Below are positions 12,915 to 14,364 of a stretch of 48,818 bases of DNA, one piece after another. The notes under the pieces are model-generated. The model saw nothing but the letters and a program-made list of their open reading frames with translations, was not told where the DNA came from and ran no database searches. Position numbers and translations under genes: made by a program. Source of the stretch: a virus (lineage: Duplodnaviria > Caudoviricetes); IMG/VR virus record IMGVR_UViG_3300020403_000019, positions 1 through 48,818 of that record. One strand, 5' to 3'. Position 1 is the stretch's first letter. Every line of letters starts with the position of its first letter.

Positions 12915-12945
12915 AAATAGGGGCTCAAAGGCCCCTTTGTTATTT
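12913..12945. terminator. Bidirectional intrinsic terminator
   Basis: AGGGGC-TCAAAG-GCCCCT stem (12919-12936) with T-rich tails on both strands, between convergent genes. Confidence 0.8.
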
Positions 12946-13098
12946 ATTGACTTTCCAGCTCTTACAGCCTCTTGATTTTAGATTAACCCACTTTGCGTAG
13001 TGGATTCCACGATAAGTCAAAAACGCAAAGGTCTTATCTGGATCGTGTTTTAATGGATCATATTCTGGAAGGTCATAAAACATCTTGACCTTCAGCAT
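12940..13098 (-). CDS. 52-aa peptide with DUF4278-like LTYRGIHY motif
   Basis: Hand translation MLKVKMFYDLPEYDPLKHDPDKTFAFLTYRGIHYAKWVNLKSRGCKSWKVNK; GGGGGGA SD-like sequence upstream. Confidence 0.75.
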   Translation of the reverse strand: MLKVKMFYDLPEYDPLKHDPDKTFAFLTYRGIHYAKWVNLKSRGCKSWKVNK

Positions 13099-13107
13099 AT
13101 TCCCCCC

Positions 13108-13203
13108 TTAAAATTTATGTAAAAGGAGAATCTCACCATAAATAAATGACATACAAGTAATCATACCAAGGGATGCGATCCCAACTAATTGGAATGCTTC
13201 CAT
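13108..13203 (-). CDS. 31-aa single-pass membrane peptide
   Basis: MEAFQLVGIASLGMITCMSFIYGEILLLHKF; starts 1 nt after the DUF4278 stop. Confidence 0.7.
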   Translation of the reverse strand: MEAFQLVGIASLGMITCMSFIYGEILLLHKF

Positions 13204-13204
13204 A

Positions 13205-13372
13205 TCACTTGTTGTATACGTGCCCGCGGTAGCAATATGTACCGTGGGCTTCTTTATGGTCTGCACAATTTACGTTGTACTCTACGCCGCGATAAGCAGT
13301 GTGAGTAATTTGTGCGTCGTGAAGTGCGGCAGCCTTGCTAAGCTGTCTTTTGATGATGTTAAGTGTGTTCAT
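13205..13372 (-). CDS. DUF4278-family peptide (55 aa)
   Basis: MNTLNIIKRQLSKAAALHDAQITHTAYRGVEYNVNCADHKEAHGTYCYRGHVYNK with two YRGxxY motifs; AGGAG SD at 13384-13380; lies downstream of a glutamine riboswitch motif, as is typical for the family. Confidence 0.85.
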   Translation of the reverse strand: MNTLNIIKRQLSKAAALHDAQITHTAYRGVEYNVNCADHKEAHGTYCYRGHVYNK

Positions 13373-13414
13373 TTGTTTACTCCTGAAGTAGTTGGATTTT
13401 TAGGCCCCGTTCCT

Positions 13415-13582
13415 TCAGTCGTTTGCGTCCCAGTAATGATTACAATGTGGTACAGAATCTTTAATAGTCTCTACCAACTCTAACTTGTACTCTGGCTTCA
13501 AACCCTCATGCTTATGAATCCGAAGGATTACAGCATCAGCGTCTGTACAGGCCATTTGTGCATAGAGTAGTAATTCAATCAT
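13415..13582 (-). CDS. 55-aa hypothetical protein nested in aptamer 2 (MIELLLYAQMACTDADAVILRIHKHEGLKPEYKLELVETIKDSVPHCNHYWDAND)
   Basis: Hand translation; GGAG SD at 13596-13593; the C-terminal WDAND codons are riboswitch core nucleotides. Confidence 0.8.
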   Translation of the reverse strand: MIELLLYAQMACTDADAVILRIHKHEGLKPEYKLELVETIKDSVPHCNHYWDAND

Positions 13583-13617
13583 GGGATGAACGCTCCGTTC
13601 CGCGACTTACTTGCGTC

Positions 13618-13818
13618 TTATGTAAAAGTTCCGCTGCATTCTTCTTCTACTTTAGTCTTCAAGTAACCTATTAGATTACGTTGAGATCTATAGTCTAGAT
13701 TGCTATCCGTGAGGATCTCAACACGACGCTGTAGAAATCTCTCACAACTCATATGCCATCCGTAGGGAGAGCCGTCATTGTGATGAGTTAGGACAAATGC
13801 TAATAGAAACTCTAGCAT
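13618..13818 (-). CDS. 66-aa hypothetical protein nested in aptamer 1
   Basis: ORF track; hydrophobic N-terminus and two Cys; start and stop codons both lie in the P2 stem. Confidence 0.8.
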   Translation of the reverse strand: MLEFLLAFVLTHHNDGSPYGWHMSCERFLQRRVEILTDSNLDYRSQRNLIGYLKTKVEEECSGTFT

Positions 13819-13831
13819 AAGATGAACGAAA

Positions 13832-13855
13832 GAAATGTATAAAATGTTACATTTC
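13832..13855. promoter_or_regulatory. NtcA-type binding site (GTA-N8-TAC)
   Basis: GAAATGTA-TAAAATGT-TACATTTC: perfect 8-bp arms containing TGTA-N8-TACA, immediately upstream of the riboswitch. Confidence 0.75.
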
Positions 13856-13867
13856 CTCTATGGCTAT

Positions 13868-13875
13868 CTTTAAAC
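13868..13875 (-). promoter_or_regulatory. Candidate phage promoter GTTTAAAG for the riboswitch cassette
   Basis: Same motif as elsewhere; overlaps the HNH stop codon (GTT TAA). Confidence 0.55.
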
Positions 13876-14364
13876 TAGATAGCAATATTCTTTCCACTCC
13901 TCGCACTTAGTTTGAGAAATGGTTAGGTCCAAGTGTGTCCTAGGACGAGTAGGCTTTCTGGCTAGCTTGAGACCAGATTGCTCAAGCATTTTGTTTGCTT
14001 TTTTGATATTACAGGAAGAGCATGCTACAACAAGGTTATCCCAGTCGTCACTACCACCCTTTGACTTAGGAACTACGTGGTCAATAGTAAGCCTTCTTGT
14101 AGAACCACAATATTGGCATTTATGACCGTCCCTAGTATAGATAGCGTTTCTACTGGGCTTTGCCCTCATCATCTTGGTAAATGGGATCTTAATGAAATTA
14201 ACAAGCCGAATTACTTTCTGACTTACAACCTGAGCTTTCTCTTTTAAGAGAAGAACAAAGGCTCTTTTCCAGGAGGTGATATTGATTGGCTCATAAGAAG
14301 CATTAAGAACAAGTATTTGTTCTCTAGCAAGTGAGTCAAGTTCTGTCAATATAGCCTGTTTCAT
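13870..14364 (-). CDS. HNH endonuclease (McrA-like, cyanobacterial type)
   Basis: LVLNASYEP N-terminus; RDGHKCQYCG...TIDHVVPKSKGG...NLVVACSSCNIKK. Confidence 0.9.
   Translation of the reverse strand: MKQAILTELDSLAREQILVLNASYEPINITSWKRAFVLLLKEKAQVVSQKVIRLVNFIKIPFTKMMRAKPSRNAIYTRDGHKCQYCGSTRRLTIDHVVPKSKGGSDDWDNLVVACSSCNIKKANKMLEQSGLKLARKPTRPRTHLDLTISQTKCEEWKEYCYLV

Follow-up and report, generated by a model that had tools for sequence, protein, structure and literature searches.

Two interlocked predicted glutamine pockets with a gene nested in each P2 loop head a cyanophage operon and may act as a reciprocal translational switch

The window analysed here is the whole stretch of 48,818 nucleotides; the record is a 48.8-kb virus fragment and belongs to an S-TIM5-like cyanophage. 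In the region described below, identity to cyanophage S-TIM5 and its relatives is 82%, and the genes of S-TIM5 follow one another in the same way: nrdA, next an HNH gene, then three small hypothetical genes, which match ORF-a (annotated there as AEZ65727.1), ORF-b and the downstream gene. A sequence-only reading of this DNA had placed on the minus strand a double glutamine riboswitch with a protein-coding gene in each P2 loop. All the strings that it quoted are present at that place, and the two ORFs of 66 aa and 55 aa were found at 13818-13618 and 13582-13415. The shared P3 helix, the anti-SD platform on a DUF4278-like gene and the NtcA-type box were absent from it. The features of the locus, with the predicted parts of the RNA and the evidence for each, are as follows.

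13837..13850, no strand assigned: NtcA-type palindrome GTA-N8-TAC, ending 8 nt before the aptamer (sequence)
13824..13828, minus strand: outer P1 5′ strand CGUUC, pairing with 13412-13408 (C-G/U-A covariation in 9 listed copies; RF01739 alignments of gene-free relatives)
13816..13822, minus strand: P2a 5′ strand, containing the ORF-a AUG (pairing counts in relatives, window fold)
13618..13818, minus strand: ORF-a, 66 aa, phrog_6471, filling the P2a loop (in-frame selection, pN/pS 0.19)
13616..13622, minus strand: P2a 3′ strand, containing the ORF-a UAA stop (stop here in 34 of 41 long loop-a copies)
13603..13615, minus strand: outer junction CGCA (linchpin C13613), E-loop AGUA and shared P3 5′ strand AGUCG (covariation)
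13588..13600, minus strand: inner circularly permuted P1 hairpin GAACG-GAG-CGUUC (pair covaries in 82 listed copies)
within 13588..13600, minus strand: inner linchpin base G13595 and putative ORF-b SD GGAG, 13596-13593 (covariation, GAG-loop counts)
13582..13586, minus strand: P2b 5′ strand, its last base being the A of the ORF-b AUG (pairing in 120 distinct ends)
13415..13582, minus strand: ORF-b, 55 aa, phrog_504, in the P2b loop (pN/pS 0.19-0.34)
within 13407..13432, minus strand: P2b 3′ strand, inner junction CGCA (linchpin C13425) and P3 3′ strand CGACU (covariation, fold)
within 13407..13432, minus strand: E-loop GAAG, outer P1 3′ strand GAACG and linchpin G13407 (covariation, fold)
13418-13413, minus strand: anti-SD CUGAAG, doubling as an aptamer strand (window fold)
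13380..13388, minus strand: expression platform, CUUCAG (partner of CUGAAG in the ligand-free state) overlapping the downstream SD AGGAG (pair probability 1.0)
13205..13372, minus strand: DUF4278-like (IF17-like) gene, 55 aa, phrog_545 (PF14105 match)
12940..13098, minus strand: small YRG-motif gene, phrog_6192 (ORF list, S-TIM5 annotation)
12919..12936, minus strand: terminator-like hairpin (terminator scan)

The downstream gene matches PF14105 with an E value of 8.7e-4 and 20.1 bits, against a cut-off of 25.3, and is likely the main target of the switch. Short IF17-like proteins do not have the C-terminal part required for GS binding (PMC6212724). A YRG-bearing ORF lies downstream of 217 of the 272 listed copies of the element, the flank being too short in 52 and the ORF missing in 3. 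The phrog_6192 gene is probably the last of the operon, which the hairpin at 12919..12936 likely closes. A 31-codon hydrophobic ORF (13108-13203, minus strand) starts 2 nt past the DUF4278-like gene; in the matching stretch of S-TIM5 no CDS is annotated between the two flanking genes.

Relatives were collected by scanning viral contigs with exact patterns, which gave at least 381 loci. Counting the window, the middle motif was matched 368 times in them, with the 3′ part missing in 17 and the 5′ part in 6. Collapsing identical copies left 272 distinct complete elements, and all counts over 272 are counts among the matches listed. The set is variant-enriched by design and no census; the copies share ancestry, so that counts overstate independent events, and the variant P1 combinations number 4. 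The AGUA was fixed in most scan patterns and left free in the set fetched with the ORF-a protein, while the two pattern scans feeding the P1 topology count held only one P1 strand fixed. Among the 272 listed copies, 66 have a gene in neither P2 loop, 165 in the inner loop only, 9 in the outer loop only and 32 in both.

The 36-nt middle segment has a match in 413 of 50,697 phage records (many near-identical isolates), all 413 being named Synechococcus, Cyanophage, Prochlorococcus or Marine; ORF-b is present in 309 phage records. Furthermore, each of the 80 viral loci retrieved by the ORF-a protein alone carries the middle segment in the nested setting; 71 of the 80 are complete, 5 have extra spacer length behind the 5′ CGUUCA, and 4 are truncated at a contig end. 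These two results place the element far beyond chance. On the host side, the pattern occurred in 1 of 401 genomes and the ORF-b profile in 1 of 201 (family of a Synechococcus MAG), both on one phage-like contig. A looser genome-wide scan, whose pattern was too permissive, returned 1 true element among the 120 loci listed. That locus (L485, or G001:C1) sits on a 194-kb contig binned in a Synechococcus MAG and matches cyanophages over the 3 kb tested; the contig, which is also the one hit in the host genomes, is probably a binned phage genome. The cassette (window 13150-13900) is common to S-TIM5-like phages (Aurunvirus) and T4-like cyanomyoviruses, a distribution that suggests exchange between phage lineages. 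The middle segment is also found in phage S-H68 (79.6 kb).

Searched against Rfam, the window had no match at the cut-off, and no glutamine family appeared at E values up to 10, as had been foreseen for covariance-model searches. Natural gene-free relatives were used instead of a loop-deleted window. Five of the six gene-free doubles of a first set passed the RF01739 cut-off of 35 bits, scoring 38-44 bits, and in the alignments of the passing doubles the first CGUUC and the last GAACG form the two ends, the 38-48 nt in the middle being taken as P3 loop. One of these six (L009) differs from the window by 1 base outside the P2 arms. A second set yielded 1 of 11 at the same cut-off, so that even the short form is unreliably seen by Rfam. 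The outer pocket is a three-way junction P1-P2-P3 with conserved CGUUx/xAACG, as in RF01739, and the E-loop strands at 13611-13608 (AGUA) and 13416-13414 (GAA) match the RF01739 consensus. That family stands in 5′ UTRs, typically before DUF4278; here the downstream gene is DUF4278-like with a score under the Pfam cut-off, and the element overlaps two ORFs and is no plain UTR.

The second glutamine family, RF01704, was also compared. Its C-G long-range pair (C19:G41) and the contact bases C1, G2, G18, C39 and G40 are matched in both pockets. The helix that in RF01704 joins the linker to sequence 3′ of GAACGG is absent, the linker strands pairing together as P3. In half-elements aligned to RF01704 that helix is poorly paired, and 1 of 14 loci exceeded the cut-off. 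The C-G linchpin, which the sequence-only reading took for an unusual swap, is the RF01704 consensus and is also present in rows of the original glnA alignment (PMC2864571 supplement). Comparison of sequence and structure supports the proposed identity as a glutamine riboswitch, and the element very probably binds glutamine.

The wiring is not the one first proposed, namely two tandem aptamers each closing its own P1. In the nested arrangement the outermost strands, first CGUUC and last GAACG, form one helix, and the middle GAACG and second CGUUC form the other. Two observations would suit tandem units: 189 of the 272 listed copies fit either wiring, and a tandem-style unit-1 P1 is predicted in the ligand-free window fold (probability 0.85) and in the MFE structure of L009. 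However, all 83 informative copies are nested and none is tandem. A change of the middle GAACG to CAACG or AAACG is accompanied by a matching one in the second CGUUC (82 listed copies), and a change of the last GAACG to AAACG by one in the first CGUUC (9 listed copies); 8 copies have both. The P3 strands covary across the supposed units: AGUCG (within 13603-13615) goes with the distant CGACU at 13421-13417, with the variants AGACU/AGUCU, GGAAGG/CCUUCC and GGUCA/UGACU. The first of these alters the ORF-b tail from DAND to DAQV.

The linchpin, a single long-range pair of the RF01739 type, was followed with scans for a first-junction CGGA (core in 25 of 29 loci) and for a C after the middle GAACG (core in 20 of 39 loci). 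Where the first junction is CGGA, 15 of 16 distinct copies have a C after the last GAACG and the other has a U, giving G-U; C13613 thus covaries with G13407, and the inner pair is unchanged. Where a C comes after the middle GAACG, the second junction reads CGGA in 14 of 20 copies, CGAA in 6 (an A-C mismatch) and CGCA in 0, and the outer pair is unchanged. Several of these variants carry ORFs, and tandem wiring fits 0 of the 36. Both pockets preserve the bases that contact the ligand, and in both a linchpin pair covaries across 190-420 nt; counterparts of C1, G2, G18, C19, C39, G40 and G41 (numbering of PMC6698751) are present in each. The P1 of the inner pocket is closed by a 3-5 nt loop, which amounts to a circular permutation.

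These comparisons argue that one shared P3/E-loop helix almost certainly connects two pockets of the RNA, one at either end: an outer pocket of glnA type and an inner one that is circularly permuted; the likelihood left to two independent tandem aptamers is negligible. In the glutamine-II crystal two hybrid pockets arise by strand exchange between two RNAs, and glutamine also binds to an RNA made of two pieces (PMC6698751), which makes the nested wiring physically reasonable. Single-sequence folding of L009 was not unusual (z -1.6). In five other copies (L066, L103, L143, L161 and L210) the second CGUUC is gone and the inner pocket broken; in L066 the 3′ core lies ~230 nt further on, and what is left is an outer aptamer whose P3 loop is the size of a gene.

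The P2a stem UCUUAUG/CAUAAGA, claimed as 7 bp around the ORF-a AUG and UAA, was confirmed; P2b (UCCCA/UGGGA) has 5 bp. Positions 1 to 7 of P2a are paired in 72, 72, 68, 59, 71, 64 and 64 of the 72 protein-fetched loci. In the scan set, where pairing at positions 1-2 was selected by the parser, position 3 is paired in 35 of 35 with C-G/U-A exchange and position 4 in only 18 of 35. Of 120 distinct P2b ends, 119-120 are paired at each of positions 1-4; the pair at position 4 is C-G in 94 and U-A in 16. The extension of P2a by AGAGUUUC/GGAACUUU proposed earlier is predicted in the window fold (pair probability 0.79-0.99), but in the relatives pairing at P2 positions 8-10 is not above shuffles.

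Each P2 loop contains a whole gene, as had been claimed. With the aptamer-overlapping ends left out, pN/pS was 0.19-0.34 in frame versus 0.67-2.25 in shifted frames (four equal-length classes), which indicates that the loop ORFs are under purifying selection; in the homologs P1, P2 and P3 covary and the loops are conserved in frame, the pattern that the first reading had proposed to look for. Across copies the AUG lies inside or just past the P2 5′ strand. The ORF-b AUG indeed starts in the P2b 5′ strand and its last codons are aptamer core, with the UGA within P3/E-loop; a UGA or UAA stop is found there in 190 of 197 listed gene-bearing copies. Among 41 copies, 34 have the ORF-a stop in the P2a 3′ strand, 3 in the E-loop strand and 4 earlier.

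The ORF-a protein has a hydrophobic N-terminus, two invariant Cys and a predicted helical hairpin. The two Cys are common to the ORF-a and ORF-b families, which align with a probability of 97.5% (82 and 39 sequences; one subtype is in both sets and may inflate the value), and ORF-b is likely a paralog of ORF-a. AlphaFold models of the loop proteins are helical hairpins (pLDDT 84 and 78). The Cys pair and the hydrophobic N-terminus possibly point to a disulfide and export. No solved structure matched the ORF-b model at Z ≥5 (best 4.7); its matches among viral structures are uncharacterised cyanophage proteins, the Atlas gave unnamed clusters only, and neither loop ORF has a Pfam match. RNA-library contigs, which carry no strand, level or start and may be DNA, contain ORF-b (13419-13582) with 0 differences and part of ORF-a (13630-13780) with 1 difference. 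A high summed RNA-run depth over aptamer segments pools many phages and was left out of the argument.

The anti-SD pairing CUGAAG/CUUCAG has, in the ligand-free fold, a mean probability of 0.91 in the 32 two-gene copies. A CUAAAG strand goes with a CUUUAG partner in 57 of 59 copies, the other 2 being unparsed. Since the nested fold uses the CUGAAG strand too, the ligand would free the downstream SD. The same SD-freeing ON logic has been proposed for Synechocystis gifB, and DUF4278 is the usual target (PMC6212724). Glutamine-ON control of the downstream DUF4278-like gene is, from these pairings, probable. A GGACGG P3 subtype (L257-L368), mostly gene-free and with a 6-bp P3, has both the P3 3′ strand and the pre-SD bases altered (CCGAAG with CUUUGG or CUGGAG); judged by eye, this is a possible compensatory change of the platform.

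The GAG of the inner loop creates a GGAG 10 nt before the ORF-b AUG in 140 of 197 listed copies with ORF-b versus 1 of 75 without it; these are raw counts over related copies and include lineage effects. It is missing in 57 of the 197 copies, and ORF-a has no SD. Two G bases of the GGAG are pocket bases, so that binding would bury the putative ORF-b SD. Both P2 stems are predicted even without ligand (mean 0.70 for P2a and 0.73 for P2b, and also in the window fold), and masking of the AUGs need not therefore depend on glutamine. The earlier proposal that the ligand masks both starts is thus plausible for ORF-b but weaker for ORF-a, and for ORF-b itself ligand control is only slightly favoured.

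Of 240 unique leaders, 140 have an NtcA-type box at most 90 nt upstream (shuffle mean 6.1), as do 70 of the 72 protein-fetched loci; in relatives it is mostly 39-47 nt upstream. A single such site is not significant, 13 occurring in the window for 9.9 expected. The NtcA consensus and position rule follow PMC6212724, which associates a location like that of the window's box, 8 nt from the aptamer, with repression, and this box is likely at a repressing position. Cyanophage NtcA sites were predicted earlier (PMC3037559). A promoter scan of the window found no sigma-70 site ahead of the element; in relatives the element is preceded, at a distance of 7-8 nt, by a TA-N3-T hexamer. In T4-like relatives (e.g. 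L033, L085, L139) a TTGAC...TATAAT-type promoter ends 7-8 nt before the aptamer, often with CTAAATA directly after the -35 box, and the transcript would begin almost at the aptamer. This CTAAATA upstream of the element resembles a T4-type late promoter. Just upstream of the window's NtcA-type box, a 7-bp inverted repeat (13863-13883) over the end of the HNH gene is terminator-like on the plus strand.

We propose, with moderate confidence, that the interlocked two-pocket RNA is a reciprocal translational switch that heads a cyanophage operon and carries one gene per P2 loop; the nested fold is well supported by the comparison, and the switching mechanism is what we infer from it. Without glutamine, CUGAAG/CUUCAG would cover the downstream SD and keep that gene off, while the ORF-b GGAG and the short ORF-a leader would be accessible to ribosomes. 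Ribosomes reaching the two stops would hold P2, P3 and the E-loop open: because these stop codons lie within P2a or P3/E-loop, translation is incompatible with folding, and the competition proposed in the sequence-only reading is borne out to that extent. With glutamine and no ribosome in the way, P3/E-loop would take CUGAAG and the downstream gene would be on; the GGAG would join the inner pocket and ORF-b would go down, as might ORF-a with less certainty. Through the NtcA-type box, nitrogen would also act on transcription. The fullest form of this proposal is that of a widespread phage riboswitch with a permuted and a second pocket, two ligands bound cooperatively, pocket bases serving as ribosome site, start region and stop, and an operon flipping between two protein sets by host nitrogen status; we consider it evenly balanced.

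The loop ORFs could instead be passengers, translated whatever the ligand, with the switch acting on the downstream gene only. Both loops are known with and without genes, one ORF subtype is found in either loop (L258 versus L006), and the P2 stems form in predictions without ligand, all of which would fit. Nevertheless, the ORF is never free-standing in the 80 protein-fetched loci, its start and stop are fixed on aptamer strands across very divergent ORFs, and the GAG loop tracks ORF-b, so we regard passenger genes as unlikely. Translation could also be a second input. A ribosome at the ORF-b UGA would cover the anti-SD strand and melt it, so that coupling to the downstream gene stays a live rival; that gene would then be on with glutamine or with ORF-b translation, and the ORFs would be much like leader peptides. 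The position of the ORF-b stop inside the anti-SD strand in 190 of 197 copies and a common GAAG/AAAG variant that keeps the stop speak for it, while the conservation of the loop proteins (invariant Cys, pN/pS 0.19-0.34) and the finding of AAAG in gene-free copies too speak against it. As a replacement for the reciprocal switch we rate such an input lower still, although the two can coexist.

A further alternative would be a different ligand, or a structural or protein-binding element that no longer switches. Glutamine binding is here deduced from sequence, the permuted pocket is without tested precedent, and six inner linchpins are mismatched. The pocket bases, however, match both tested glutamine classes, and the DUF4278-like target and the NtcA-type box suit nitrogen sensing, which makes this alternative very improbable.

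Compared with glutamine-I (glnA RNA, RF01739; gifB leader, PMC6212724), the reciprocal switch proposed here has the same P1 CGUUC/GAACG, P2, CG(G/C)A junction and AGUA/GAA E-loop on P3, as well as a DUF4278-like gene downstream (in this window with a score under the cut-off), a likely SD-freeing ON mode and an NtcA-type box. In contrast, P3 ends in a second, permuted pocket and not in a loop, both P2 loops contain genes, and the element is phage-borne and ~420 nt long, glutamine-I measuring ~55-60 nt. With glutamine-II (Downstream-peptide, RF01704) it has in common CGCA...GAACGG with a C-G long-range pair; like glutamine-II, the inner pocket has no E-loop of its own and a short AA linker. There is no downstream pseudoknot helix here, unlike in glutamine-II. 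The strand exchange takes place within one chain and is evolutionarily conserved, whereas the glutamine-II crystal dimer is ascribed to crystallisation (PMC6698751). Tandem glutamine riboswitches likewise place two glutamine pockets on one leader; 157 doublets and 4 triplets have been listed as separate switches with several expression platforms (PMC9481103). In the present RNA the pockets share strands and one platform, and real cooperativity is therefore possible.

If binding is as predicted, the RNA would be at once a circularly permuted aptamer of natural origin and a true two-site glutamine sensor, with whole genes inside a metabolite sensor, and cyanophages would, if this is true, read host nitrogen status directly. 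In leader-peptide attenuators translation competes with RNA structure, and group I introns carry ORFs in peripheral loops. Here, by contrast, the host RNA is a predicted metabolite sensor, the ORFs encode conserved proteins with predicted folds, and start, putative SD and stop are aptamer bases.

This is a real and conserved architecture of a known riboswitch class that has apparently not been described so far; its core is present in the 413 phage records, and the nested genes and the interlocked fold conceal it from Rfam. In the passages of the literature that were covered (among them PMC9004378, PMC12379486, PMC7357161 and PMC12510878), neither interlocked glutamine pockets nor nested genes are described; glutamine is not mentioned in those of PMC10085705. 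One survey counts only two glutamine aptamers in cyanophage genomes and states that phages rarely use riboswitches (PMC5473149). The 'glnA' match of 99 nt in S-CREM1 (PMC9964418) has the length of a gene-free double. Tandem glnA RNAs are mentioned in PMC2864571; doubled-core strings were not found in the 2010 alignments searched in its supplement, where gap characters can hide them, and half-elements are single short rows of its glnA alignment, which has wide columns for the P2 and P3 loops. Other rows of that alignment, with AGUA-AGCCGA-CACGGAACGG and no P3, resemble the first halves of further interlocked doubles.
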